A program made the translations under genes and the position numbers. A stretch of 63,896 nucleotides of DNA, the filler included. It is 6 parts of 6 records of this genome, joined end to end, with 100 filler letters (N's around TTAATTAATTAA, not from the genome) between each part and the next. Parts side by side here need not be neighbours in the genome. Positions count along the whole stretch, not along the records: positions 28,165 to 51,754 come from DRR378314_185; 5 more parts are not named here. One strand, given 5' to 3'. Of the stretch, positions 28,165-50,630 are shown piece after piece. Positions within the stretch are counted from its first letter, which is position 1, and each line of letters begins with the position of its first letter. Below the pieces are notes generated by a model that made no database searches, was not told where the DNA came from, and worked only from the letters and a program-made list of their open reading frames with translations.

Positions 28165-28385
28165 CCATTGCAATGGAACCTGTTGGCCATATCGCTGGCA
28201 TTGCTGCCTCGGCGATTGCAGCTATCTCGACAGTACTGGCCGCAGTTCTGGCTTCCCCTGTCGGGTTGTTGTTCAACGGTACGGTCCAGCCCCTTGTTGC
28301 GGCCATCCTCGTCATGGCAATGGCGGGCTATGCCCTGATGCTGCGCCTTGGCCGGATCGAAGCACGCGCAACCAACGACAGCTGA
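28165..28385 (+). CDS. Bcr/CflA-family MFS transporter, C-terminal fragment
   Basis: AMEPVGHIAGIAASAI..STV..PVGLLFNGTVQPL typical of Bcr/CflA C-termini. Confidence 0.65.
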
Positions 28386-34255: not shown

Positions 34256-34506
34256 CAACAAACGGCGCGTCCTTCCCCAACGGCTTCAAGGGCGCGCCCC
34301 GCTCCCCCCTCTTTTTGGCTAAATATACTGTCCGCACTCTCGCCAAACGCCGCCGTCAGAGGGACAGGACCAACGCTCCCCCTAGCTAAAAACCTCCGCA
34401 TTCCCCCGCTTTCGCGGATGTACTTTTACATGTTCGCGACATGCGGTATCGACAGAGGATGCAAACCCCCGGTGCCGCGCAGCGCTGGACCCAACCGGAG
34501 CACCCT

Positions 34507-36975
34507 ATGGCCCTGATCTTTCGCTGGCTTATCCGTCTTGCCGCCACGCTTGTGGTGCTCAGCGTGCTGACGATCACTGTGATATACTGGCTCGCCTCGC
34601 GCTCCTTGCCAGATTACACCGATACGGTGCCCGTGCGCGGGCTGACCGCCCCGGTCGAGATCGTGCGCGACAATGCCAATGTGCCGCATATTTTTGGCGA
34701 AACCGACGCGGATGTCTTCTTTGGTCTGGGATTCGCCCATGCACAGGACCGCATGTGGCAGATGACTATTCTGCGCCGTACCGCACAGGGCCGCCTCAGC
34801 GAGGTTTTCGGGGCTTCGACACTGGATATCGACAAGCTGATGCGGCGGCTGGACCTTTATCCGCTTGCCGTAGAATCCGCCGCTGCATTGGATGCAAAAA
34901 CCCTTGCTGCGCTTGAAGCCTATGCCGCTGGCGTCAATGCCCGCCTGAACCAGATCAACACCGAAGCTCTGGGACGTGGGGCTCCGGAAATGCTGTTGTT
35001 CAATGCACCAATGGCCCCTTGGCGCCCGGCCGATTCCGTGGCTATCACCAAATTGATGGGGGTGCAGCTGTCCGGCCATCTACAGGGTGAAGTGATCCGC
35101 GCCCGCACGTCTCTGGCCCTGCCAGATGAGGACCGGGTACGTGACATCCTGCCTGATTTCCCCGGTACCGGTGTTGCCGCCCTGCCGGAATATGCCAGCC
35201 TTGCCCCCGGTGTGCGCCGCCATGCGGCAAATATCCCGGTCAACCCACACCCGCTTTCGCCGTTCAAGGACATGGCCTTTGCCGGTGCTTCCAACGCCTG
35301 GGCGGCAGCCCCCTCGCGTTCTGCTTCTGGCGGGACATTGCTGGCCAATGATCCACATCTGGGGTTTACCGCCCCATCGATCTGGTATCTGGCGCGGCTT
35401 GATCTGCAATCGGGCGGCGTGATCGGGGGCACCATCCCCGGCATGCCGGTGGTTCTGACCGGGCGCAGCGATGCTTTGGGCTGGGGGCTGACCTCGGCCT
35501 ATCTGGATGATCAGGATGTCTATATCGAAGAGGTGAACCCAGACAACCGCGAAGAATATCGCACACCGGATGGGTTTAAGGCGTTTAGCAAACGCGCCTC
35601 AATCATCACGGTCAAGGACGCGGATCCGGTGACCCTGACCCTGCGCTGGACCGATAACGGGCCGGTACTGCCCGGGTCACATTATAACCTTGCCAGTATC
35701 ACACCGCCGGGCCATGTGACCTCGCTCAACTGGACCGTGCTGACGCCGCGCGACACCTCTCTGGCTGCGGCCATGGCCCTGATGGAAGCGAAATCTGTTG
35801 AGGAAGGCATCAAGGCCGCCCAACCCTATATCGCCCCGGCACAGAACCTGACATTGGTCGACCGCGAGAATATCGCGATGAAGATGATCGGTGCCATGCC
35901 CCGGCGTGATGCCGGGCACCAAAGCCAAGGGCGTATGCCCGCACCGGGCTGGATCGCCGCGAACCGCTGGCAGGGCACCCTGCCCTATGCCGCAAATCCC
36001 GAATTCGTCGCCCCCGTTGGCGGTATTCTGGGCAATACCAATAATAAAACCGTGGACCGCCCCTTTCCCAATCATGTGTCGTTTCTCTGGGGGGACACCC
36101 AGCGGGTGCAACGCTGGCAACGGTTGATGCAAACGCGGCAGGTACATACCCGCGACAGCTTCATCGAGGCGCAGCTGGACACGGTCAGCTTCACCGCCCG
36201 TTCGCTGCTGCCGCTGATCGGTGCCGAACTCTGGTTCACCGGCGAGGCCGCACCTGACGGAAGCGCCGAACGTCAACGTCAACGCGCATTGATCCTGTTG
36301 GCCGGCTGGTCAGGCGAGATGAACGAACATCTGCCCGAACCGCTGATCTATGCCGCCTGGCTGCGCAGCCTTCAGGCCCGGCTTATTCAGGATGAACTGG
36401 GCCCGCTGGCGGCTGAGTTTGACCATGTGCAACCGCTGTTCATCGAACGGGCCTTTCGGAATGTAAACGGGGCCAGCGTCTGGTGTGACGTGCTGCAATC
36501 CGCACGTGTCGAGGACTGTGCCGAAATGGCGCGGCTGGCTCTGGATGACGCCCTGTTGTGGATCAATGAAACATGGGGGCCGCAGCTGGAAAGCCTGCGT
36601 TGGGGCGATGCCCATCAGGCAACCCATGACCACCCGGTGCTTGGGACTGTGCCGGTGCTGCGCTATTTCGTGAACATTCGCCAGTCGACGTCCGGCGGGG
36701 ACAACACCTTGCAACGCGGGCGGACCAAGGGTGAAGACCCCGACCCATTCAGCAATGTGCATGGTGCCGGCTACCGTGGCGTGTATGATTTTGCCGACCC
36801 GGATTCCTCGGTCTTTGTCAGCTCCACCGGTCAATCCGGCCATTTCCTGTCACGCCATTACGACGATCTGGCGCAGCTGTGGCGGCGTGGAGAATATATC
36901 CCGATGTCGCTTGATGCCGATCTGGCCCGCGCCGCCTCCGTCGGAGTGACAACTCTCACTCCGGTTGCCCCATGA
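34507..36975 (+). CDS. Penicillin acylase-family (Ntn hydrolase) amidase
   Basis: [24 protein letters not shown] nucleophile, [17 protein letters not shown]. Confidence 0.92.
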
Positions 36976-37535
36976 ACCGCGTTATCCTGTTCAACAAACC
37001 TTTTGGCGTATTGTCTCAATTCACCGACAAGGGCACCCAAGGGTCCAACCGCCCGACCCTCTCTGCCTATATCGACCAGCCTGCATTCTATCCCGCTGGC
37101 CGGCTGGACCGCGACAGTGAAGGCTTGATGGTGCTGACCGACAACGGCGCGCTACAGGCCCGGATCGCCCATCCGAAATACAAACGCCCAAAAACCTATC
37201 ACGTGCAGGTCGAGGGCACTGCGGATGCCAAAGCGCTGGATGCCCTGCGCAAAGGCGTGATGTTGAAAGATGGCAAAACCGCCCCGGCCGAGATCACCCA
37301 GATTGATACTCCGGAAGGTCTGTGGGAGCGTGACCCACCCGTGCGGTTTCGCAAAACCGTGCCGGATGTCTGGCTGCGCATCACCATCCGCGAGGGCCGC
37401 AATCGACAGGTGCGCCGGATGACAGCGCATGTGGGTCTGCCCACCTTGCGGCTGATCCGCGTTAAGATCGGCGATTGGGCACTGAATGACCTGCGCCCCG
37501 GTGCCTGGCGCTGGGCCTCGGAAAACGGCGCATAA
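36972..37535 (+). CDS. rluE: 23S rRNA pseudouridine synthase E
   Basis: [43 protein letters not shown]. Confidence 0.9.
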
Positions 37536-37614
37536 GACGCCCTTCTCCCGCCTGCCGTGGCAGCACAGCAATCTATGTCTGGACACCGCGCCGTTTCTGC
37601 ATCCGCACAGGAAA

Positions 37615-39381
37615 CTAGGGTGACTGAAGCATGGCGACCATCTGATCGCGCATAACGAATTTCTGTGGCTTTCCCGTAATGGTCATTGGGATTTCATCCA
37701 CGATCCTGACATGTTTCGGGATCTTGTAATGTGCGATTTGCCCCTGACAGAACTGTCGAACAGCATCCTCTGGCAGATCCGCGTTTTTCCGTGCAACAAC
37801 CCAAGCACAGACTTCTTCCCCAAGTTTCTCATGAGGAATACCAAAAACCTGAACCTCTGCGATTTCGGGGTGGCGGAACAGGAATTCTTCAATCTCTCTT
37901 GGGTAGATATTTTCACCGCCGCGAATGATCATGTCCTTCACCCGTCCAACAATTGTGCAAAACCCATCGTGGTCAAATGTGGCCAGATCTCCGGTGTGCA
38001 TCCAACCGTCGATGATCGCCTCTTCGCTGCGTGTATCGTCGTCCCAATACCCCTTCATGACGGAATAACCACGCGTACAAAGTTCCCCTTGCCCACCAAC
38101 CGGCACAATCTGACCCTCGGCATCGATGATCTTGACCTCAAGATGGGGATGGACACGCCCAACCGTCGCACAGCGCTTGTCCGTGGGATCATCGACAAAA
38201 CTCTGGAATGAAACCGGCGAGGTTTCGGTCATGCCATAACAGATGGTCACATCCTTCATGTTCATCCGAGAATTCACGCGTTCCATCACGTCAATCGGGC
38301 ATGGGGCACCGGCCATGATGCCCGTGCGCAGGGATGACAGGTCAACGGGGTTTTGCTCAAGTTCTTGCAGCATGGCAACAAACATTGTCGGCACACCGTA
38401 GACCGCTGTGCAGCGTTCTTTTGACAGTGTTTTTAATGTCCCGGCGGGCTCAAAGGCTTCACCGGGAAAGACCATTGCCGCCCCTTTGCTAACGGCACCA
38501 AGCGTGCCCATCACCATCCCGAAGCAATGATATAAAGGGACAGGAATGCACAAACGGTCTGCTTCGGTCAATTTGATCCGCCCGGTGACGAAACCTGCGT
38601 TGTTGACGATGTTGTAATGGGACAGCGTTGCCCCCTTTGGCACCCCGGTTGTTCCTGACGTGAACTGGATGTTAATCGCATCATCCGGGCTAAGCGTGCT
38701 TTCGATCACCGACAGGCGCAGTTGTTGCGCAGGCCCGCCGAGGTTTTTCACATCCTCAAACCTGAAAGTACCTGGGGTTTCTTCCGGCCCCATGACAATG
38801 ACATTTTTTAATGTGGGCAGCTTTGTTGCATTCAGCCGCCCCGGTTCCGTATTTTCCAACTCTGGTGCCAGTTGCTGCACCATTTTCAGATACTCGGAGG
38901 ATTTGAACCGCCGCGCCAAGACAAGCGCTTTGCAGCCGACCTTGTTCAACGCATATTCGACCTCCGACAGACGGTAGGCAGGATTGATATTGACCAAGAT
39001 CAACCCGATGCGCGCAGTTGCAAACTGCGTCAAAACCCATTCGTAGCGGTTGGGTGACCAGATCCCGATGCGATCGCCCTTTTCCATCCCCAAGGCCAGA
39101 AAGCCAGAAGCCAAGGCATCAACATCTCGGTCGAAATCATAATAGCTCAACCGCTCGCCGGTCTCTTGAAAAAACAATGCCTCGCGGGGGCCAAACCGGG
39201 ATACTGTTTCGCGCAGCAATGCCGGGATGGTAATATATCTTAACTCCTGTTCAGTAGAGCCTTTCACATATGATTGCCCATCAGCCGGTGCCAAGGCAGA
39301 GGCAGTGGCACTATCAGCTTTGCCTTGAGAGCGTGCAGCAGCGCCGAGCTTATGCGCCAGACTTTCGTTCAGAATTGACAT
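37615..39381 (-). CDS. Acyl-CoA synthetase (ACSF2/YngI-like AMP-binding protein)
   Basis: [62 protein letters not shown]. Confidence 0.92.
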
Positions 39382-39391
39382 GATGCGCTCC

Positions 39392-41764
39392 TCACATTGT
39401 CCGCCAGTCGTCGCTTTGTTCAAACGCATGCGCCGCCTGATAGATTTTCATCTCGCCGTAGTTCGGTCCAACCAGCATCATGCCAATCGGCAGCCCCTCC
39501 AGAAGGCCGCAAGGCACGCTCATCGCGGGCAGCCCACCGTTAAACGGGGCGGTATTTGCGATCATCTCGAATGCGCGCTGAACGTAAAGCGAAATAGAAC
39601 AATCTGCTGGCGGGATTTGTTGCGGCTTCATCGGAACGGTCGGCATCAGCAAGAGGTCATATTGCTTCAACGCCGCGGCGTATTTTTCATTCACCTTGCG
39701 CATCAGGTTTTGCGCCTTGCCGTAAAACCTGCCGCGATACCGCTCTTGGAAATATTCCCCCAAGAACATGCAAGTCTTCAAAGAATGGCTCAGTTCATCC
39801 GGGCGGCTGCGCCACTGCGCCATGTGATCCATCATAGACGGCACAAAGAGGCCGCGATAATTCGTACCGGCCGAATTGCCGTGCATCATGTGATCCTGCA
39901 AGCCTTCAACCGTGATCGCCGTCCAGCAATCCACGGCCAGCCCATGTTCCGGGACAGAGACCTCATCAACGCGCGCGCCCAGTTCGCGAAACCGCTCTGC
40001 TGCTGCACGCACTTTCTGATCAACATCGGATTCAGCGGATGGTCCACCAAACCCTTCCTTAAGGATGCCAATGCGCATGCCATGCGCGCCTTTGCCAAGA
40101 GCTTCGGTATACCGATAGGTCCGCGGTTTGTATTGACGCGGATCAAGACCGTCCTCACCTGCGAGAATTTCCAGCAACATCGCATTATCCGCGACCGTCT
40201 TGGTGACCGGCCCCACGTGGTCGATTGTTTGCTCGATGGGCATCACACCCGAATAAGGCACCAGCCCATGTGTGGCTTTCATACCGTAAACACCACAGTT
40301 GGACGCCGGGATGCGGATCGACCCGCCCTGATCCCCGGCAATGGCCATATCAACCTCGCCCGCTGCGACAAGCGCCGCTGAGCCGCCAGAAGATCCCCCC
40401 GCCATATAGCCGCGTTTCCATGGGTTGTGGATTGGTCCCTTGGCATTGGTATGAGAGCCACCGGACAGACAAAAATTCTCGCAATGGGCCTTGCCCGCGA
40501 TTGTGGCACCCGCGTCCAGCATGCGCGTGACAATGGTGGCGTCAATCTCCGGGGTATAGCCTTCCATGATTGAAGAGCCGTTCATCATTGGAACACCGGC
40601 AAGGCAGATCGTGTCCTTCAGTGCAATACGCTTGCCCCGAAGCGGTCCATCCATCGCGCCTTTCACCTCGGTCTTAACATACCAGGCATTCAAGGCATTG
40701 TCAGAGGCATCGGGGAAATGACCGGGCGCACGGGGATATCGCACTTCAGGAAGGTTGTCAGGCAGCGCATCCAGACGATCATATGCCTGTATGTAAGGTT
40801 CAATGATCTCGCAATATTCTGAAAGCTCAGCGTCTGTCAGGCTCATTCCGAACCGCTCTGCCATGGTCCGCATCTGACTTAAGGTCGGGCGTTTGATTGT
40901 CATATTGGTCACCGCAGGTTGCGATGCATCAGACAAAAGGTCTGAAGGCATCCGTGTTGGGTTGGAAAGTGCCGATGTCGGCGCATCTGTATTGGTTGAG
41001 GAGGAAGGTACCGCACTGCCCCGTGTTGAACGCGCAGCACCGAAGCCGAGGAACTGATCGACCTTCGCCTGATCAGAAAGATCGGCTTTAGAAAGCGCGC
41101 CGGTGATACGGCCCCGCTCAAGCACCAGCACACGATCAGAAAGGTCCGAGATGAAATCAAAATTCTGCTCGACCAAGAGGATCGATAGCCCCCGCTCATG
41201 GCGCAGTTTCAAAAGCGTCTCGGACATCTCTTCAATGATCGAAGGCTGAATGCCTTCAGTGGGTTCATCCAGCAAGAGAAACTCTGGATCGCCCATCAAA
41301 CACCGCGCCAGCGCCAGCAATTGTTGTTCCCCGCCGGAAAGCGCTCCGCCTTCGCGGTCCAGCAAACGCACCAGTCGTGGGAAATCCTCTAGGACGGCAT
41401 CGATCACGTCATCTTCACTGCCCCCCGAATAGTCGTGCCACGCAAATCGCAGATTGTCGCGAACAGACAGCTGCGGAAAAATACCGCGTCCCTGAGGAAC
41501 ATAACCGATCCCAAGCCCTGCACGTTCATTCGGTGCCATGCGGGTAATCTCTGTCCCATGAAACCGGATCGTTCCAGAGGTCGCGGGCAAAAACCCCATC
41601 GCAGTCTTCAAAAGCGTGGATTTCCCCATGCCGTTATGGCCAAGAATGCCAACGACTTCATTTTCGCCGATCTGGAAATCAATGCCGTGCAATACAGGCA
41701 CTTTGCCATATCCGCCTGACAGGCTTTTGACTTCGAAAAGGGCGGCGCGGTCTTCTTGTTTCAT
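39392..41764 (-). CDS. Fusion: UrtE/LivF-like ABC ATPase + amidase-signature amidase
   Basis: aa ~1-243: [34 protein letters not shown]; ~45-aa S/T/P linker; from MTIKRPT (40903): [21 protein letters not shown]. One 790-aa ORF with no stop. Confidence 0.88.
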
Positions 41765-42480
41765 CAGGCGTTCTTTCCAAGATAGACATTGCGGACCACC
41801 GGATCAGACATGACCTTGTCGACATGGTCCTCCATCAACAAAGCGCCCTGATGAAACACCGTGACCGTTGAGGCGATGGAGCGGATAAATTGCATGTCAT
41901 GTTCAACGATGACGACGGCGGCAGTGCGGGTCAGCTCGTGGATGATTTCGCTCATGCGTTCGACATCTTCGGCGCTCATGCCTGCGGCGGGTTCGTCAAG
42001 AAGAACAAGCCAGGGGTCAGCAACCGCCACCAAGCCAAGCTCTACCCGCTGGCGTTCCCCATGCGCCAGACGGCCCAGATCGGCCTTGGCAATCGGTCCC
42101 AGGCGCAAACGATCGATAATGTCACTGGTTTTTGTATTTGCCTCACGTGTCGGCATGAAACGCCGTGCGGCCATCCAGATGTTTTCAAACACCGACAGCG
42201 CATCCATCACATTTGGCACCTGCGTTTTGATGCCGACGCCCAATACGGCAATCTCATGCGGGTGCCAACCTGTGGTGTCCTGCCCCCGCATAAAAACCTT
42301 ACCTTCGGTTGGTGTATGAAGCCCGGTAACGCATTTGAAAAAGGTCGATTTGCCCGCCCCATTAGGCCCAATCAGACAGCGCAGCTCGCGCGCTTTTAGT
42401 CTGAAATCAACGTTGTCGGATGCAACCACGCCGCCAAAGCGTTTGGTTAGCCCTTCGGTTTCGAGAACAATCTCAGCCAT
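41764..42480 (-). CDS. UrtD/LivG-like ABC ATP-binding protein
   Basis: [49 protein letters not shown]. Confidence 0.9.
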   Translation of the reverse strand: MAEIVLETEGLTKRFGGVVASDNVDFRLKARELRCLIGPNGAGKSTFFKCVTGLHTPTEGKVFMRGQDTTGWHPHEIAVLGVGIKTQVPNVMDALSVFENIWMAARRFMPTREANTKTSDIIDRLRLGPIAKADLGRLAHGERQRVELGLVAVADPWLVLLDEPAAGMSAEDVERMSEIIHELTRTAAVVIVEHDMQFIRSIASTVTVFHQGALLMEDHVDKVMSDPVVRNVYLGKNA

Positions 42481-43510
42481 ATGTACCTCCGGCCTGCCGG
42501 GAACCACGCCGGTGGCGACGGTTCCTTGATGCGCGTTTTGCAAAACTTACAGACCAAAGCGATGTCACTGCCGGCACGATTCCTTTGGGCAGAAACAGAA
42601 CGAACAACACAAGAATGATCCCTGTGATCAAGGTGTTATCGATCAGCGTTTGCTGCCCGAGTGCGAACTTCAGATAGGCCAACCCGGCAGCGCCAAGAAT
42701 GGGGCCAAAACGCGTGCCCAGCCCGCCAACAATGCACCAGATGATGATCTCGGCGGATTGGCCAAGGCTGAACAGACCGGGGGTCACAATCTCCCCCCAG
42801 TTCGCAAAGAACCCGCCTGCCAGACCAGCAATTCCCGCCCCTATTGCAAAGAGGGCCGTCTTGCGCGCCCGCACGTCATACCCCATCAGGGACACGCGGG
42901 TTTCATTCTCCCGAATACCAACCGCGATGCGCCCGAAAGGTGTGCGCAACAACCAGGTGATAAAGAAAAACACCATGATCAGCGCGACGGCACTGACATA
43001 ATACAGCGCATCACCCCAGATATAACTGTCGGGTTGTCCGGGGACGTTCAATGTGTGGAAACCGGGAATGCCATTGAAGCCACCCAATCTGGCCTCGCCA
43101 ATCTTATATTGCGGACCTGCCGTGGAATTCACAAATTTGAACAGGATCAAGGTCACCACTAAAGTGATAACGCCCAGATATACATCCGTCAGACGTCCGT
43201 AGAACATCATCGCCCCCAAAAGGGCAGCAAACAGGGCCGGAACAAAGACCGCCAGCAGCATTGGAACGGTGCTTTCGCCGATATTGATCGCAGCAACGGC
43301 ATATGTATATGCCCCAAGCCCGAAGAACGCGGCCTGTCCAAAGCACAGGATGCCGCCAAACCCCCAGATCAGCCCAAGACTGAGCGCCAGCATGCCGTAG
43401 ATGACGAGAACCGTAAGCGTATAGGTGCTGATCAACATCGGCATGACAAACAACAGCAAGACAGCAAAGATCAAAGCCGCAACATCGCCTTTTCCCCATG
43501 TAAGCGACAT
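42473..43510 (-). CDS. UrtC/LivM-like ABC permease
   Basis: LIWGFGGILCFGQAAFFGLGAY, GGFNGI, VGGLGTRFGP. Confidence 0.88.
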   Translation of the reverse strand: MSLTWGKGDVAALIFAVLLLFVMPMLISTYTLTVLVIYGMLALSLGLIWGFGGILCFGQAAFFGLGAYTYAVAAINIGESTVPMLLAVFVPALFAALLGAMMFYGRLTDVYLGVITLVVTLILFKFVNSTAGPQYKIGEARLGGFNGIPGFHTLNVPGQPDSYIWGDALYYVSAVALIMVFFFITWLLRTPFGRIAVGIRENETRVSLMGYDVRARKTALFAIGAGIAGLAGGFFANWGEIVTPGLFSLGQSAEIIIWCIVGGLGTRFGPILGAAGLAYLKFALGQQTLIDNTLITGIILVLFVLFLPKGIVPAVTSLWSVSFAKRASRNRRHRRGSRQAGGTYG

Positions 43511-44376
43511 TACATCTTCCCCTTGAAAAACTTGCCGGTCACACCCTGCGGCAACAGGCGCAGCAGGATCACGGCGGCGATAAGAAGGGCGACTTCTCCG
43601 ATCACAGGCGAGATCGCGAATGTGAAGATTTGATTGACCAGCCCAAAGAGGCCCGAACTGGTGACCAATCCTGTGATCAGGGCCGGGCCGCCGGCAATCA
43701 CTGTGATGAAGGCTTTTGCGATATAGATCCCGCCGGATGTAGGGACGAGGCCAACCAAGGGTGCCAAAACAGCACCGGCAAGCCCGGACAATGCAGATCC
43801 GCAAAAGAAGGTCGCCATATAGATGCGATCAGGACTGTATCCAAGGGCCGCAGCAATGTCGGAACGCTGCATCGTTCCCCGTGCGATCAACCCGGCCCGC
43901 GTTGTTTTCAGCAGGACATAGATGCCCACAAGCAAGCAGATAGTGATGAAAATGACAAAGAAGTTGTAGCCGTTGATCTGGTAATTTCCAACGGTAAACC
44001 CCTTGATCGGTGTGGTGATGCTTGTGGTGGTATTGCCAAAAATCATCGTCACCATACCGATGAAAAACAGGCTAAGCCCCCAAGTCGCCAACATCGTATC
44101 GACCAGACGGCCATAGAGGTGGCGAATGACCAACCGCTCAACGAGCAACCCAATCAGGCCAACAACAAGCGGCGCGATGATCAGCATGGCAACAAAGACA
44201 TTCACACCAAGGTTCACCGCTGTGATGGTCGCATAGCCGCCCATCATCATAAATTCACCATGCGCAAGGTTGATCACTTTCATCATCCCGAACACCACGG
44301 CCAGACCAACACTGATAAGAGCCAATGAGGCGATGGCGTAGAGAATTTCCACCAATATGACGAATGACAGATCCAT
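43510..44376 (-). CDS. UrtB/LivH-like ABC permease
   Basis: GLAVVFGMMKVINLAHGEF, LYGRLVDTMLATWGLSL. Confidence 0.9.
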   Translation of the reverse strand: MDLSFVILVEILYAIASLALISVGLAVVFGMMKVINLAHGEFMMMGGYATITAVNLGVNVFVAMLIIAPLVVGLIGLLVERLVIRHLYGRLVDTMLATWGLSLFFIGMVTMIFGNTTTSITTPIKGFTVGNYQINGYNFFVIFITICLLVGIYVLLKTTRAGLIARGTMQRSDIAAALGYSPDRIYMATFFCGSALSGLAGAVLAPLVGLVPTSGGIYIAKAFITVIAGGPALITGLVTSSGLFGLVNQIFTFAISPVIGEVALLIAAVILLRLLPQGVTGKFFKGKM

Positions 44377-44479
44377 GAAGGCTCACATGCTTTTGGGAAT
44401 GCCGGGGACCACCCGCAGCATAGGGGGATTTGAAGGGCCACCCCGTAAGGCAGCCCGTTGAGATCACGACCGCAAGGGT

Positions 44480-45703
44480 TTAGATTTCGATCTCATATTG
44501 GGTATTGTCGTCCGGATTGGCTTCCAGATCGCAGACCGCTTGTGTATCAATCGGCTGCCGTTGCGGGAGCGTTTCGATCACCTTCATCTGCTGGTCCTGA
44601 ATTTCCATCACATGAACATCAAGGACCGCGTGATGTGTCTTGGGGTCCACAGTCACAACGCCGCCGGGACCCGTGATCGAAATACCGGTTTCCAGCGTTT
44701 CGATGATCGCGTCACGCTCAAGCGACCCCGCTTTGCGGACCCCTTCTGCCCAAGTCAGGATCCCGTGGTAGTTGGATACCGCAATTTCATGCATGCTTTG
44801 ATCGCCGTCATTGGCAGCGGCCCAGGCCTCTTTGAAGGCATTGTTTTCTGGCGTGTCCAATTCTTGCGAATAGTTGTAGGCCACCATGATCCCGTTGCCC
44901 TCTTCAGGGGTCAGCACCTTGTGCTCATTGCCAACGCCCAGTGTCGTCGACGCCAGGGGAATACGATCCTTCATGCCAGCGGCAGCCCATTGCCGGAAGA
45001 ATGACAAATGATTACCCCCGACAAGCGGTGCGATCACCAGATCAGGTGCGGCCGTCTGGATCTTGGCAATGGTTGAGCCAAAGTCGGCGACATCCAGCGG
45101 GAAGAAATCCACGCCGACGGTCTCGCCACCATTGTCGGCCACGAACTTTTGAATCCAGTTCGCCATATACTGTCCGTAGTTATAGTCTGCGGCAAGAATA
45201 TAGACCTTTTTGCCCGATTTACCCATTGCATAAGGCACCAATGCCTCTACTTGCTGCGCTGGTGTCACACCGTTGATAAAGATATTGCGATCACAGACAC
45301 CACCCTCGTAAAGCACGTTATAAAAGTAGAGCGTTTGCGACCTGCGCATGGTTTGACGGATCGCCTCGCGGGAGGCGGACAGAATACCGCCATGGACCAC
45401 GTCAACCTGATCCTGTCGCGTTATCTGTTGGCCATATTGCGTATAAAGCGCCATGTCCGACTGCGTGTCATAGGAAACAACTTCGACCTGCTTGCCCAGC
45501 AAACCACCGTCAGCGTTGATCTGGCTCACCGCCAGACGCATCGCCATGTCCATCGGTTTGCCATAGGCGTCAAAAGGGCCGGAAGTATCCAGAATGGACC
45601 CCAATTTGATGGCATCAGCAGCCAGTGCGAAGCTTGGCAACATGGCGGCACCGGTCAATGCAGCGCCTGTTCCCAGAAATTTACGTCGATTGAATGTAGT
45701 CAT
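44480..45703 (-). CDS. Urea/short-chain amide ABC substrate-binding protein (UrtA/FmdD-like), Tat signal
   Basis: MTTFNRRKFL; SASREAIR, YNVLYEGG, ADYNYG motifs. Confidence 0.88.
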   Translation of the reverse strand: MTTFNRRKFLGTGAALTGAAMLPSFALAADAIKLGSILDTSGPFDAYGKPMDMAMRLAVSQINADGGLLGKQVEVVSYDTQSDMALYTQYGQQITRQDQVDVVHGGILSASREAIRQTMRRSQTLYFYNVLYEGGVCDRNIFINGVTPAQQVEALVPYAMGKSGKKVYILAADYNYGQYMANWIQKFVADNGGETVGVDFFPLDVADFGSTIAKIQTAAPDLVIAPLVGGNHLSFFRQWAAAGMKDRIPLASTTLGVGNEHKVLTPEEGNGIMVAYNYSQELDTPENNAFKEAWAAANDGDQSMHEIAVSNYHGILTWAEGVRKAGSLERDAIIETLETGISITGPGGVVTVDPKTHHAVLDVHVMEIQDQQMKVIETLPQRQPIDTQAVCDLEANPDDNTQYEIEI

Positions 45704-45751
45704 ATTTCCCTCCACGCATGGCTCCCCACCATGCTCTGTTGATTGCATCGT

Positions 45752-47350
45752 TTATTTTTTGTCGTCTTTCGCCTTGATGCGATTGGCGTAATCGGCTGTG
45801 CGGCCAGCAATATTCGGATCGAAATCAAGGCCAATTTCCTCTCCCATCTGCTTCATCGCGGGCAAACGGACGGCCATGCCCAGGATCTGATCCATTGCAG
45901 AGCCAAAGGCGCTGTCACTGCTGCCCTCCCCTGATGGCCCTGCCTGCATGCCTGTCCCGCCGATGTGGTTGATTTTAATCGAGTCGATCTTTTCCACCGG
46001 CTTCATCATCTGCGTCATGATCTCCGGCATCCGGTCGAGCCGCTTTTCTTCCAAGCGCATTCCGACAAGCGCATCGCTCATGGTGTTTTCTGCCTCGATC
46101 AGAGCAGTCTTACCCTTCGCAGCAGCTTCGGATTTCGCCAGTTCAGCAGCAGCCAGCGTTTTGGCGGCTTCGGCCTCTGCTTTGGTTTTAAGGGCCAATG
46201 TCTCGGCATCGCTCTTGGCCTGTGCAGTGCTCAGTTCGATTTCTTTGGCCAGCTTCAATCCGGCCGTCTCATGTTCACGGCGGGCTACGGCTTTTTCTTT
46301 CTGTGCCTGAACATCTTCGGCTGCCAAAAGCACCGCAACCCGCGCCGTTTCCTCGGCAGCCTGTGTCTTGAATTCCGCAGTGCGCAATTGCGCCAGCTTC
46401 GTATCATTTGCGATCTTGGTTTCTTCCAGTGCAAGGATCGCGGCCATTTCGGTGCGGCGCAACGCTTCGTCATTGGCGACCTTTTCAGCTTCGATACGTT
46501 TCAAAGACGTCAGCCTTTGCTGTTCGATCAAAAGGTCGGCTTCTGATTTTGCCGCTTCTTTTTTGGCGCGCGATTCTGCCTCAAGCCGCTCGATGGTTTC
46601 TTGTTGCGCAATTGTTGCCTCGCGCTCTGTACGGTCGATTTCCAGCTGACGCTGATGTTTGGCAAGGCCGCTTTCCCGCACCGCGATATCGGTTTCGGTC
46701 TCGATACGAACCCGCGCGCGGCGTTGTTCCGCAACAAGTTCTGCGTGACGCCGCAAACCTTTGGCAGCAAATGCGTTTTGCTCGTCCAACTGTGACAGAT
46801 CACTTTGATCAACACGGATCAAAGATGCCGAAATAAGTGAAAGGCCAAATTGCGCCGCTTTTTTTGCCACTGCGGCTTCGACTTCTGATGTGAAACTTGC
46901 GCGGTTCGAATGCAGCGCATCAAGGGACCGCGTTGCCGCCGCATTCTGCATCGCATCAAGCAAAGAGCCTTTCAAAAGCTCTTCGATGGCATCACCACCC
47001 CGCTCCACCCTCGCCCCCAATGCCTGAGCGGCGGTTGCCACGGCCTCATCAGTGCCTTCCACCCTGAATTCAAACTCCATCGCAACATCCGCGCGCAGCT
47101 GATCTTCAGTCAACAAGCCCTCGCGGCCTTTGCGTTCGGCTGAGAATGTCACTGCCCCCATCATCACACGCTGCACCTGGTGCAGAATTGGAAGGGCGAT
47201 GCAGCCGCCGTTTAACACAACTTTCCGACCACCGAGGCCGGTCCGTACCAAGGCGGAGTTCAGCGTGGCTTTTGCATAAAATTTTTGGAGAAACCAAATG
47301 CCAAGCAAGATGACAATGGCCAACACAATGATGGAAAAAACCCAGATCAA
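45752..47350 (-). CDS. Flotillin/SPFH-domain protein (YqiK-like)
   Basis: N-terminal TM; ALVRTGLGGRKVV..GGCIALPILH, F.RVE..EAVATAAQALG, Ala/Glu coiled coil, KPVEKIDSIKI; GGGAGGG RBS before TTG 47350. Confidence 0.85.
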   Translation of the reverse strand: MIWVFSIIVLAIVILLGIWFLQKFYAKATLNSALVRTGLGGRKVVLNGGCIALPILHQVQRVMMGAVTFSAERKGREGLLTEDQLRADVAMEFEFRVEGTDEAVATAAQALGARVERGGDAIEELLKGSLLDAMQNAAATRSLDALHSNRASFTSEVEAAVAKKAAQFGLSLISASLIRVDQSDLSQLDEQNAFAAKGLRRHAELVAEQRRARVRIETETDIAVRESGLAKHQRQLEIDRTEREATIAQQETIERLEAESRAKKEAAKSEADLLIEQQRLTSLKRIEAEKVANDEALRRTEMAAILALEETKIANDTKLAQLRTAEFKTQAAEETARVAVLLAAEDVQAQKEKAVARREHETAGLKLAKEIELSTAQAKSDAETLALKTKAEAEAAKTLAAAELAKSEAAAKGKTALIEAENTMSDALVGMRLEEKRLDRMPEIMTQMMKPVEKIDSIKINHIGGTGMQAGPSGEGSSDSAFGSAMDQILGMAVRLPAMKQMGEEIGLDFDPNIAGRTADYANRIKAKDDKK

Positions 47351-47432
47351 AGCTACCCTCCCAAGCAGACAAGAATTTGGGATCGCGCTCATCAGTGTGG
47401 CAACAAGTCCCTTTCACTTAGGCTTGCCGAGT

Positions 47433-47479
47433 TTTGTTTCCAATTCAAGTATTTTATTTTCCAATTCAAATAAAATACT
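47433..47479. promoter_or_regulatory. Tandem candidate MarR operators upstream of the flotillin-ABC operon
   Basis: TTTCCAATTCAA x2 (47437, 47458; 21-bp period); perfect 12-bp IR AGTATTTTATTT/AAATAAAATACT (47448-47479). Confidence 0.65.
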
Positions 47480-47492
47480 CAACTATCTGAAA

Positions 47493-48644
47493 TTATAGCT
47501 TTTTAATGATCCTGAATAGGGCACCATCCGCTTTCGCCAGATAAATAGGTGCCACACCAAGCGGCTGTTCCGCCTTGTTGGGACGTCGAACAGAGTCGAA
47601 GCTGATCGCGCCTGAGCAACGACTGTCCTTGTCGCTCCAGTCGTCTTTATGCATGGTCATGAGACCTGCAAGGAACTGCACACCTTCATAGGTAGACTGG
47701 CCAAGCGAATTCAAGGCCGGCGCGGTTTCTCCATGAATCGCATAATACCTTTCACGGAAGTTTTCGTTTTCAGGTGTCGACAGCGCCCCGAAGTATGATG
47801 AGGCCGAGTAGAGCTCTTTAAGGTTGTCCTCGCCACTTGCTAACAGACCATTTTCCTCAATCGCACATGAAAACCGGATCATGCGTTCATGCATCCCCGC
47901 CTCACCAAAAGCGCGGTTGAAGGTGATGGCATCCTGCCCAACCAGCGAAATCAACACCGCCTCCGCGTCGGTTTCAGCAATCTCTGCAACAAGCCCGGAC
48001 ATGTCGTTCACCCCGAAGGGCATATATTTTTCAAACGAGATCCGGGCGGACATCTGCGAGAGTTTTTCTGCGGCATAGGTATTGGATGAACGTGGCCACA
48101 CATAATCATTGCCGACAAGTGCCCAGTTCTTGATGTTCATATCATTGCAGAAATGTTCAAGTGCCGGCCCGAGTTGACGGTCAGGCGTGTCGCCGATGGC
48201 GAAAATACCCTTGGTATTCTCCCCCCCTTCATAGAGCGGCGTATAGATATAGGGCACGCGTTGGCGCACAATCTTGCTGAGGTTCTGACGCACGGCACTG
48301 ATATGCATGCCGACAATCGCATCAATCGCGCGAACCTCAATCAGAGAGTTGATGACTTCCTCGACCGGGGTTTGCGCCTCAAGTGCTGAATCAATCATGA
48401 TCAACTCTATCGGGCGACCGTTTATCCCGTCTTTCGCATTCAACTGCGCAACGGCCACCTGCGCGCTTGAGATACAGGAAGGTGCCCAAAGCCCCGCAGA
48501 ACCACACATTGGGATCAGCAACCCGATACGAAACGTGCCTCGCGGAAAGTCCGCAAGCTTGCCCTCGATCTCACTGAGCTCGCTCGGCACGATCACCTTG
48601 GACAAGCTTGGACCGATTGAGGATGTGTTAGAAGCCGCCAACAT
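47493..48644 (-). CDS. AmiC-like cytoplasmic amide-sensing protein (type 1 periplasmic-binding fold, no signal peptide)
   Basis: IGLLIPMCGSAGLWAPSC, GMHISAVR, YTPLYEGG, GNDYVWPR, GQSTYEG; start uncertain. Confidence 0.82.
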   Translation of the reverse strand: MLAASNTSSIGPSLSKVIVPSELSEIEGKLADFPRGTFRIGLLIPMCGSAGLWAPSCISSAQVAVAQLNAKDGINGRPIELIMIDSALEAQTPVEEVINSLIEVRAIDAIVGMHISAVRQNLSKIVRQRVPYIYTPLYEGGENTKGIFAIGDTPDRQLGPALEHFCNDMNIKNWALVGNDYVWPRSSNTYAAEKLSQMSARISFEKYMPFGVNDMSGLVAEIAETDAEAVLISLVGQDAITFNRAFGEAGMHERMIRFSCAIEENGLLASGEDNLKELYSASSYFGALSTPENENFRERYYAIHGETAPALNSLGQSTYEGVQFLAGLMTMHKDDWSDKDSRCSGAISFDSVRRPNKAEQPLGVAPIYLAKADGALFRIIKKL

Positions 48645-48665
48645 GACTGCCAAAGTGCATTGAAA

Positions 48666-48685
48666 ATACTTTCCAAGTCAACTAT
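48666..48685. promoter_or_regulatory. Third copy of the operator box, in the divergent amiC/marR promoter
   Basis: ATACTTTCCAAGTCAACTAT, 15/20 identical to each box at 47433 and 47454; imperfect palindrome. Confidence 0.6.
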
Positions 48686-48719
48686 TTCTATCCACAACCA
48701 CCAGAGGATCAGAGCTGCA

Positions 48720-49142
48720 ATGTCAAAATCAAACCCTGTTCAATCCTATTTGTCCTATTCACTCGCAACAGCGCATCGCAAAGTGCATGGGTCACTCAGC
48801 AGGAGATTGAAGGAATTTAACGTTCAGGTTGAGGCCTGGCGGGTGATGGAAATTCTTGAGAGTGGAACAGACATGACAATGGGCGATCTTGCCGAAGCGG
48901 TGCTGATGAACCCGCCCACATTGACAAAACTAGTGGATCGTATGGTCTCCGATGGCATCGTGCACCGCCGCATGGCCAGCATTGATCAAAGGCAGGTGAA
49001 CCTTGTGCTTACCGATCTGGGACAGAAACGTGTTGGTCAAATTCGCGAACAAGCCAGACTCGAAGATGACGAAATCCTGGATAAGATCGGGGTTGAGAAT
49101 GCCGATCTGCTACATCGGATTCTGGGCGAGCTTGTAAAATAG
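48720..49142 (+). CDS. MarR-family transcriptional regulator
   Basis: WRVMEIL..MGDLAEAVLMNPPTLTKLVDRM..G.V.R..DQR..V.LTDLG. Confidence 0.9.
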   Translation: MSKSNPVQSYLSYSLATAHRKVHGSLSRRLKEFNVQVEAWRVMEILESGTDMTMGDLAEAVLMNPPTLTKLVDRMVSDGIVHRRMASIDQRQVNLVLTDLGQKRVGQIREQARLEDDEILDKIGVENADLLHRILGELVK

Positions 49143-49206
49143 TCGATTGGGCCAACGCACTGATAGAGGCGTAAAACCCTCTGACGTCTTACACCGAGAG
49201 ATGAGA

Positions 49207-49236
49207 AAAGCCGCCGAAGGGGTCTTCGGCGGCTTT
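49207..49236. terminator. Bidirectional intrinsic terminator between marR and the DAHP synthase gene
   Basis: AAAGCCGCCGAAG-GGGT-CTTCGGCGGCTTT. Confidence 0.8.
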
Positions 49237-49259
49237 AGTTTTTCCAAAAACGGCTGGCG

Positions 49260-50630
49260 TTATCCGGCAGCTTGCGCGCGCTGCTGGTCCCGGCGGGCGC
49301 TCAACTCTTCCGCAACAAGGAAGGCCAGTTCAAGCGACTGGCTGGCGTTCAGGCGCGGATCGCAGGCCGTGTGATAGCGATCTGACAAATCCTCGTCAGA
49401 GACCGCACGCACGCCACCGGTGCATTCGGTCACATCTTGCCCTGTCATCTCGAAATGCACACCGCCGGGGACTGTGCCCTCTGCCGCATGCACGCCAAAG
49501 AACTCGCGGACTTCGCGCAGCACGGATTCGAAAGGCCGCGTTTTGTAGCCGGTCGAGGATTTGATCGTGTTGCCGTGCATCGCGTCACAGGTCCAGACCA
49601 CATTGGCCCCTTCTTCCTGTACCGTTTTGATCAGACGTGGCAGGTTATCCCCCACCGCTCCGGCACCGAAACGCGCGATCAGGGTCAGACGCCCCTCTTC
49701 GTTTTGCGGGTTCAGTTTGGCCATCAGCAGTTTCAGATCCTCGGCTGTCATGCTGGGTCCGCACTTCAGGCCAATCGGGTTCATCACACCAGAAGCAAAT
49801 TCCACATGTGCGCCATCCGGCTGACGTGTGCGGTCGCCGATCCAGATCATATGGCCGGACCCCGCCAGCCATTTGCCGGTCATACTGTCCTGACGGCACA
49901 ACGCCTCTTCATACTCCAGCAACAGCGATTCATGGCTGGTATAGAATTCCACCGATTGCAGCGTATGCGCGGTGTCGGAATTCACGCCAGCGGCGGACAT
50001 GAAATCAAGCGTGTCGGAAATGCGATTGGCAATCTCCCGGTACTTCGCGGCCTTTTCCCCATCGGTAAAGCCCAGCGTCCAGCCATGTACCTGATGCACA
50101 TCTGCGTAACCACCAGTCGAGAACGCCCGCAACAGGTTCAGCGTTGCCGCCGCCTGCGTGTAGGCGCGCAGCATTTTCTCCGGATTCGGAATGCGCGCAT
50201 CGGCGGTGAAATCCAGATCGTTGATGATGTCACCGCGGTAGCTGGGCAGTTCCACACCATCGACGGTTTCGGTATTGGCCGAACGCGGTTTCGCAAATTG
50301 GCCGGCCATCCGGCCCAGCTTGATCACCGGCACCTTGGCACCATGGGTCAAGACAATCGCCATCTGCAACAGCACTTTGAAAGTGTCACGAATCGCATCC
50401 GAGCTGAACTGCTCAAAGCTTTCAGCGCAATCGCCGCCCTGCAACAGGAATGCTTCGCCGCGACCCGCTGCTGCAAGATGCCGCTTCAGCCGGTTCGCCT
50501 CGCCGCCAAAAACCAAGAGTGGATAACGTGCAAGCTGTGCCTCTACGGCATTCAGGGCCGCTTGATCAGGATAGTCAGGCATCTGGATTCGCGGTTTATT
50601 GCGCCAGCTTGATTTACTCCACTTGGTCAT
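49260..50630 (-). CDS. Class II 3-deoxy-7-phosphoheptulonate (DAHP) synthase
   Basis: [44 protein letters not shown]. Confidence 0.96.

Follow-up and report, generated by a model that had tools for sequence, protein, structure and literature searches.

A UrtE-type importer ATPase fused to an amidase, with a conserved candidate start site for the free enzyme

We analyzed a window of 63,896 nucleotides, six joined parts of one genome, in which the part named DRR378314_185 (positions 28,165 to 51,754) carries a gene that runs in frame from the ATPase of an ATP-binding cassette (ABC) importer, through a linker, into an amidase. All coordinates given here are positions in this joined window. Comparison with relatives confirms that the fusion is genuine and conserved, and the ribosome-binding site and start codon of the former amidase gene look as if they had been retained under selection inside the fused frame. 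Our best explanation, which we hold with a probability of about 0.6, is that the gene would encode the UrtE-type ATPase of an amide importer of the HAAT family with a hydrolase tethered to it, and would in addition yield free amidase by internal initiation.

An ATPase and an amidase in one reading frame

The minus strand at 39392..41764 forms one uninterrupted open reading frame (ORF) of 790 residues, whose ATG overlaps the TGA of the upstream UrtD-like gene by one base (TGATG). Its N-terminal part matches the Pfam domain ABC_tran (PF00005) at residues 25-169, with 112.3 bits against a gathering cut-off of 25 (E 3.6e-32), and its C-terminal part matches Amidase (PF01425) at residues 364-772, with 300.5 bits against a cut-off of 27 (E 3.1e-89). 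Among the NCBIfam models, UrtE (TIGR03410) spans residues 11-239 at 260.4 bits, below its equivalog cut-off of 285.8, and the LivF equivalog NF008626 scores 148.5 bits, below its cut-off of 441. The nucleotide-binding domain (NBD) contains Walker A (GHNGMGKS, residues 42-49), LSGGE at 142 and Walker B (LLLDEP) at 163. Reading of the protein shows LVEQN where an H-loop would be, an arrangement typical of LivF/UrtE. The amidase part covers model NF005565 (PRK07235) nearly from end to end: residues 288-789 align with model positions 1-505 of 506 and score 765.1 bits against a cut-off of 545. Its motifs are ALKD, which includes K383, GGSSGGS at 456 and GGSIR at 480. By its sequence, the domain is a complete member of the amidase-signature family and of NF005565.

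An AlphaFold2 model of the fusion, built on a 36-row alignment, has a mean pLDDT (predicted local distance difference test) score of 88.3 and consists of two confident domains. Because the segment between them, residues 241-288, falls below a pLDDT of 50, we regard it as a linker. An earlier note on this DNA, made from the letters alone, had proposed a single ORF with an intact UrtE/LivF-like NBD, a Ser/Thr/Pro linker of about 45 residues and a full amidase with Lys/Ser/Ser motifs. Each of these elements is present, with the linker at residues 241-287 rich in Pro, Ala, Ser and Thr and the triad formed by K383, S458 and S482. The strand was not stated in the note; on the minus strand, its "ATG at 40903" is correct.

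The fusion is conserved and its frame is kept open

We compared the gene with relatives at three levels: protein clusters at 90% identity (the best 120 of 7862 hits); a first clade of loci from species-representative genomes (clade 1, the best 80 of 429 matching stretches, with ORFs assigned by BLAST of all ORFs); and a second clade (clade 2, the best 80 of 249 matching stretches, from a scan seeded with a 58%-identical fused relative). Both Pfam domains occur together in all 120 of the best clusters, in proteins of 781-810 residues that are 79-91% identical. A single ORF extends over both domains in 80 of the 80 clade-1 loci kept, one of which is cut by a contig end, and in 74 of the 80 clade-2 loci kept; the other six are split. 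A stop after the NBD is thus absent from the close homologues, and split genes are confined to a more distant sister clade whose amidases are 54-61% identical.

An assembly error at the junction, which the earlier note had raised, is contradicted by independent contigs: three DNA runs from three different studies yield contigs that cross the junction with substitutions only, showing no insertions or deletions and no stops. A further run, presumed to be of RNA, contributed just five short fragments of contigs that end in adapter sequence. That the fusion reflects a sequencing or assembly error, or a stop codon lost in one strain, is already refuted by these contigs and by the presence of the fusion in 154 of the 160 examined loci of other genomes and in all of the best clusters; the odds of such an artefact are negligible.

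Past the conserved ...FLGFGAAR, the sequence turns hypervariable among relatives, and the linker differs in sequence and length while always remaining in frame. The 84 unique linkers measure 28-60 codons and take 22 distinct lengths; their composition is dominated by Pro (16%), Ala (16%), Ser (14%) and Thr (12%). Frame 0 is free of stops in every one of the 84, and the other two forward frames contain stops in 16 and 29 of them. That no frame-0 stop has arisen despite many linker insertions and deletions argues that the frame is kept open and that the full-length protein is selected.

A conserved candidate initiation region inside the fused gene

On the minus strand, GGTGAC (40913..40908) is followed by CAAT and then by the ATG of Met288 at 40903..40901. 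In alignments, Met288 coincides with the first residue of stand-alone amidase homologues. Of 86 aligned rows, 85 have ATG at this codon and the last has GTG, and the six bases at -10 to -5 are nearly invariant: among 78 unique sequences, G is found in 77, G in 75, T in 72, G in 70, A in 75 and C in 69. In the same set, positions -30 to -11 are unconserved. The GGUGA of the messenger is complementary to UCACC in the 3' end of 16S rRNA (...GGATCACCTCCTTTCT in the nearest genome) and can be read as a Shine-Dalgarno (SD) sequence. The model places Met288 in its low-confidence segment and so offers no structural explanation of why the residue is conserved. The clade-1 gene at locus L087 is the only one lacking ATG at this place; its GTG is preceded by AAGGTGAAC.

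Codon 284 specifies 11 different amino acids and has G as its third base in 99% of cases, the lowest third-base entropy of the 232 columns with at least four amino acids. A third base that is fixed while the amino acid varies implies a constraint on nucleotides. Next to it, Val285 is encoded by GTG in 89% of sequences, which ranks first of 190 conserved four-fold-degenerate columns, and downstream of the start Lys291 is AAA in 94%, compared with a median of 35% over 16 conserved Lys columns. A scan of mRNA folding across the whole gene (42-nt windows in 6-nt steps, mean predicted energy) places the three least-structured windows of the gene at 0 to +12 from the internal ATG, at -2.6 to -4.1 kcal/mol against a median of -9.8 kcal/mol.

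Clade 2 has an in-frame ATG at the same place in all 74 fused genes, here after purine-rich motifs of the AGGA/GAGG type: GAAAGGA, GAGAGGA, GAAGG, CGAGGTGA and CAGGAG. These motifs are encoded by differing amino acids (E-R, E-G, R-G-D, A-G-A). At the internal ATG their median predicted SD energy is -10.25 kcal/mol; for 7933 control ATGs from the same loci it is -3.5 kcal/mol. Of the 74, 66 reach -5 kcal/mol or better, compared with 33% of controls. The site thus presents a conserved in-frame start codon and an SD sequence at proper spacing that is under selection at the nucleotide level. On four independent comparative counts, the internal SD and ATG noticed earlier bear the marks of a genuine initiation site. 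Most likely, the mRNA that encodes the fusion also yields a free amidase of 503 residues. A promoter and terminator scan of 37000-49500 returned 5 and 16 sites, compared with 7.2 and 13.6 in shuffled sequence, which is nothing beyond chance and is silent on an internal promoter.

The amidase domain and its predicted dimer

The best solved relatives of the amidase part are 3a1k and 3a1i (E ~1e-138), two structures of the amidase of Rhodococcus sp. N-771, with domain residues 5-496 aligned. This enzyme is presumably linked to nitrile hydratase. The earlier note had likened the domain to nitrile-hydratase-associated amidases. At this locus, the cassette genes and their flanks were all assigned to other Pfam families and include no nitrile hydratase gene. 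In an ungapped alignment, K383, S458 and S482 correspond to K96, S171 and S195 of the Rhodococcus enzyme, which is described as a dimer of about 107 kDa with catalytic residues Ser171, Ser195 and Lys96 and an N-terminal helical domain unique in the family (PMC11732141).

We predicted a homodimer of residues 291-790 alongside three controls. The ipSAE score is 0.92, and the best of the controls reaches 0.00; the mark is attained by 20 of 30 proteins solved as one-chain pairs; among proteins solved as single chains, 1 of 23 attains it. The runs have at least 97% of their contacts in common, the partner pLDDT is at least 95 and the interface includes residues 293-338. This predicted pairing shows likeness to the known dimer, not binding.

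The cassette and its neighbors

Within a minus-strand operon, the fusion closes the series of transporter genes, with an acyl-CoA ligase gene directly downstream (Table 1). The cassette has no second UrtE-type gene, and the fused protein must therefore supply the UrtE subunit. Read in translation, the periplasmic binding protein has a twin-arginine-like signal peptide (RRKFL).

Table 1. Features of the fused gene and its cassette; positions refer to the joined window
Feature	Position	Strand	Basis or remark
Fusion gene, 790 aa: UrtE/LivF-like ABC ATPase, linker and amidase-signature amidase	39392..41764	minus	ORF, Pfam, NCBIfam
NBD domain, residues 1-240	41045..41764	minus	Pfam, NCBIfam, motifs, model
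Disordered linker, residues 241-287, Pro/Ala/Ser/Thr-rich	40904..41044	minus	Alignment of relatives, model
Internal SD-like GGTGAC, conserved	40908..40913	minus	Sequence and relatives
Candidate internal start codon ATG, Met288, conserved	40901..40903	minus	Sequence and relatives; residue 1 of stand-alone amidases
Amidase domain, residues 288-790, triad K383/cis-S458/S482	39392..40903	minus	NCBIfam, structure match, alignment
Acyl-CoA ligase (AMP-binding)	37615..39381	minus	Start 10 bases past the fusion TGA, GGAG before it
UrtD/LivG-like ATPase, partner NBD, no extension	41764..42480	minus	Likely start ATG at 42480, GGAGG before it
Permease (BPD_transp_2, UrtC/LivM-like)	42473..43513	minus	Start near 43513 inferred from ORF translation
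Permease (BPD_transp_2, UrtB/LivH-like)	43510..44376	minus	Pfam
Periplasmic binding protein, urea/short-chain-amide type (Peripla_BP_5/6)	44480..45748	minus	Likely start 45703
Flotillin (Band_7 + Flot), between AmiC-like and binding-protein genes	45752..47392	minus	Pfam
AmiC-like binding-protein paralogue, no evident signal peptide	47493..48653	minus	Pfam; PDB 1pea E 1.5e-14
MarR-family regulator, divergent	48660..49142	plus	ORF, relatives

The same set of genes recurs across clade 1. At thresholds of at least 45% identity and at least 60% coverage, and with some of the 80 loci ending at contig borders, we found homologues of the ligase in 78 loci, the UrtD-like ATPase in 78, the first permease in 77, the binding protein in 77, flotillin in 76, the AmiC-like protein in 72 and the MarR regulator in 57. 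The second permease was present in ten of ten loci re-examined. In clade-2-like loci, the ligase directly follows the fusion in four of the four examined.

The AmiC-like paralogue, which has no evident signal peptide, is presumed to be a cytoplasmic amide sensor. No ORF of the AmiR/ANTAR type is adjacent in this neighborhood, where the only adjacent regulator ORF is that of MarR. Flotillin is a membrane scaffold, and its gene is an unusual component of an ABC importer operon that may belong to the system. Just past the cassette, the plus strand at 34441-36975 encodes an 844-residue protein of the penicillin-amidase family (PF01804, E 1e-200), which none of the 80 loci share.

Split relatives and the distribution of the cassette

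Relatives with separate genes suggest how the fusion arose. Their ATPase gene stops just past ...F(V/I)G(M/V)S... and is followed by a spacer (57 nt in locus L008, about 35-80 nt in six others), an SD sequence of the AAGGAG or GGAGA type and the ATG of an amidase that begins MT(I/V)xRPT.... The fused gene looks like this arrangement minus the stop, with the initiation region retained under selection. Amidase trees, from one of which seven long-branch representatives were left out, recover fused clade 1 (support 100*) and fused clade 2 (support 80), and they place a single split clade (98*) as the sister group of clade 2 (support 86). The trees do not distinguish one fusion plus one fission from two fusions.

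Fusion carriers belong to the Alpha-, Beta- and Gammaproteobacteria. They include Rhodobacterales, Hoeflea, Roseibium and Sneathiella, as well as metagenome-assembled genomes (MAGs) of Halieaceae, Arenicellales, Acidiferrobacteraceae, Thiotrichales and Burkholderiales. Clustering of the proteins at 50% identity leaves very few representatives of the full-length architecture, namely P0122 and fragments, and most other relatives are stand-alone amidases of about 500 residues. The cassette (~37.6-49.1 kb) has a GC content of 52-56%, against 57-62% in its flanks, which hold housekeeping genes (pseudouridine synthase, class-II DAHP synthase, ALAD). Only 3 of 25 genomes of the same genus have a fused copy, and the amidase tree mixes classes, with copies from Gammaproteobacterial MAGs placed among Alphaproteobacterial ones. 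Low GC, patchy presence within the genus and a class-mixed tree together fit horizontal spread; this suggests that the cassette has moved by horizontal transfer, to which signal MAG binning errors could contribute.

Several single cases stand out. In genome G005, which belongs to the same genus, locus L093 (contig C169) holds a split NBD and amidase operon followed by a second amidase paralogue, and another contig (C93) holds a fused copy; the fused and split forms thus coexist in one genome. At L095 (G030:C7:30000-41000), the fused gene is broken after about residue 374 of the amidase part and the other 130 residues lie ~1.6 kb downstream as a separate ORF, probably because of an insertion. 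Two amidase relatives have unrelated N-terminal domains, HsdM_N + N6_Mtase in P0130 and Myb_DNA-bind_4 in P0142, and may represent other fusions or chimeric gene calls. A 953-residue open frame in L010 was rejected as a fusion, as only its Amidase domain matches.

A proposed mechanism and its alternatives

We propose that loss of the stop codon of a UrtE-type ATPase gene turned the downstream amidase into a C-terminal domain on a flexible linker of ~47 residues. The periplasmic binding protein would capture a small amide, and the two permeases, driven by the UrtD-like/UrtE-like ATPase pair, would bring it in. At the cytoplasmic exit, the tethered amidase would hydrolyze it to a carboxylate and ammonium, and the acyl-CoA ligase encoded next would activate the acid. 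Small neutral amides pass membranes passively, and instant conversion to charged products could keep the imported substrate from leaking out.

The dimeric nature of the enzyme offers two options: the amidase domains of two transporters may be bridged, or a free protomer from the internal start may complete the dimer on one transporter. The latter is conceivable because this amidase type is homodimeric and each importer has one UrtE subunit. The conserved initiation region favors the free protomer over bridging; a free enzyme acting on substrate that diffuses in is also consistent with it. We infer, rather than show, that the substrate is an amide, that it is trapped or channelled, that two proteins are made and that a heterodimer forms. 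A bolder version, which we offer tentatively and think somewhat improbable as a whole, joins them into a two-product unit: one tethered and one free protomer would form a complete dimeric hydrolase per transporter, vectorial hydrolysis would trap permeant amides as charged products, and flotillin would cluster the complexes. Such trapping would resemble group translocation.

Several observations weigh against our preferred explanation. GGTGA allows a pairing of 5 bp, weaker than the canonical GGAGG. In this sequence alone the pairing amounts to -7.8 kcal/mol, a value that 14% of 259 operon ATGs equal and that is no better than chance, and since single-sequence pairing is unremarkable, the significance of the internal SD comes only from relatives. 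Pairing with 16S rRNA does not explain the conserved C at -5; the motifs of 8 of the 74 clade-2 members are weak (above -5 kcal/mol); and as the aligned rows are related, our counts overstate their independence. On the transport side, the UrtD-like ATPase scores 226.6 bits against a urea equivalog cut-off of 304.1 and the binding protein 344 against 494.8, which points to a paralogous importer of the HAAT family and not to a urea transporter. In the PDB, the binding protein, the AmiC-like protein and the ligase each matched generic relatives only, and no ligand was identified. The cassettes of three split relatives examined have no ligase, which limits the pathway deduced from gene context to the fused clades. 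Finally, the high score of the homodimer may reflect memory, because a like dimer has already been solved.

Some of these points would fit a situation in which only the full-length fusion is made. The SD-like motif and its ATG would then have a role other than initiation, such as pausing elongation between the two domains so that the ATPase folds or docks first, or would reflect a protein-level Val-Thr-x-Met constraint. An SD that is modest and, in the single sequence, indistinguishable from chance is what such a reading needs, as is a conserved C with no rRNA partner, and the frame that is open in all examined fused genes shows that the full-length product is clearly selected. Yet the wobble G of codon 284 is fixed across 11 residues, which places the constraint on the RNA and not on the protein, and Met288 lies in the low-confidence segment 241-288, its sole replacement being the start codon GTG. 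The preference for AAA at codon 291 and the gene-wide structure minimum are expected for initiation, not for a pause, and the SD motifs of clade 2, at an unchanged distance from the ATG, are stronger and encoded differently. We judge synthesis of the fusion alone to be rather unlikely. The amidase domain could instead be mainly a regulatory sensor, through which a cytoplasmic ligand gates transport as in the C-terminal domains of MalK, MetN or NrtC: extra C-terminal domains of importer ATPases are usually regulatory, and here too only one of the two ATPases has one. A catalytic triad and signature that are intact, together with a full-length match above the cut-off of the amidase model, speak for an enzyme; the long, disordered and hypervariable linker suits a tether better than allosteric coupling; the operon goes on with an acyl-CoA ligase for the presumed product; and a separate AmiC-like sensor is already encoded. 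A primarily sensory role seems to us very improbable. Of similarly low probability is the idea that transporter and amidase act on different compounds and that the fusion, a neutral or weakly useful loss of a stop, only secures co-expression. No substrate has been identified for either part, and both split and fused forms persist in nature, which favors this idea, but NBD and amidase stay next to each other in the split clade as well as in the fused ones, the binding protein belongs to the urea/amide/AmiC type and the open frame has been maintained across many insertions and deletions.

Relation to known systems and implications

The cassette shares its five components, one binding protein, two permeases of the BPD_transp_2 family and two unlike ATPases, with the UrtDE/LivGF importers of the HAAT family, among them amide/urea-type transporters encoded beside amidase or formamidase genes. 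It departs from the Urt urea system in that its components stay below the urea equivalog cut-offs and its UrtE subunit carries an enzyme. The amidase resembles that of Rhodococcus (RhAmidase, 3a1k/3a1i) in its near full-length alignment, its K/cis-S/S triad and its dimer, reported there and predicted here; RhAmidase is free-standing and soluble, whereas the present domain is covalently tethered to an ABC ATPase. The C-terminal accessory domains of MalK, MetN and NrtC/CmpC (nitrate and bicarbonate importers of cyanobacteria) bind ligands and regulate transport, and in NrtCD/CmpCD the extra domain sits on one of two unlike ATPases only. Our fusion shares this placement on one ATPase of an unlike pair. 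In contrast to those regulatory domains, the domain added here is a whole hydrolase whose triad is intact and which hangs on a disordered tether. An AmiC-like binding protein encoded together with an amidase resembles the amidase operon of Pseudomonas aeruginosa (amidase AmiE, sensor AmiC, antiterminator AmiR), which differs in that its AmiE belongs to the nitrilase superfamily; here the amidase is of the signature family, and a MarR gene is adjacent with no AmiR-type gene.

ClpB, IF2 and CheA are known examples of internal initiation, and like them the fused gene has a conserved in-frame start with its own SD inside a longer ORF. It differs from these cases in that the short form is predicted to be the whole product of the ancestral gene, kept after fusion. 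In-frame internal initiation giving two proteoforms is a known bacterial phenomenon that has been mapped genome-wide (10.1101/520783). A Urt-like transporter adjoining amidase genes in Bradyrhizobium has been inferred to carry an amide rather than urea (PMC3098086).

Databases name such proteins 'amidase', 'urea ABC transporter ATP-binding protein UrtE' or 'amino acid/amide ABC transporter ATP-binding protein 2', and we found no description of an ATPase-amidase fusion in the literature searched, subscription journals and supplements being outside its scope. The fusion is a real and widespread domain architecture, apparently undescribed so far, and comparison with relatives strongly supports a second translation start inside it. 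ABC importers are normally treated apart from the enzymes that consume their cargo. Here, at least 154 species-level genomes from marine and soil Proteobacteria encode a motor subunit to which a catalytic domain is covalently joined. The existence of natural split and fused versions offers a clean system in which to ask whether tethering an enzyme aids the capture of scarce, leaky nutrients. It is also a well-replicated evolutionary case of a gene fusion that apparently keeps separate expression of the downstream protein, and the retention of a working-looking ribosome-binding site bears on how such fused genes should be annotated.

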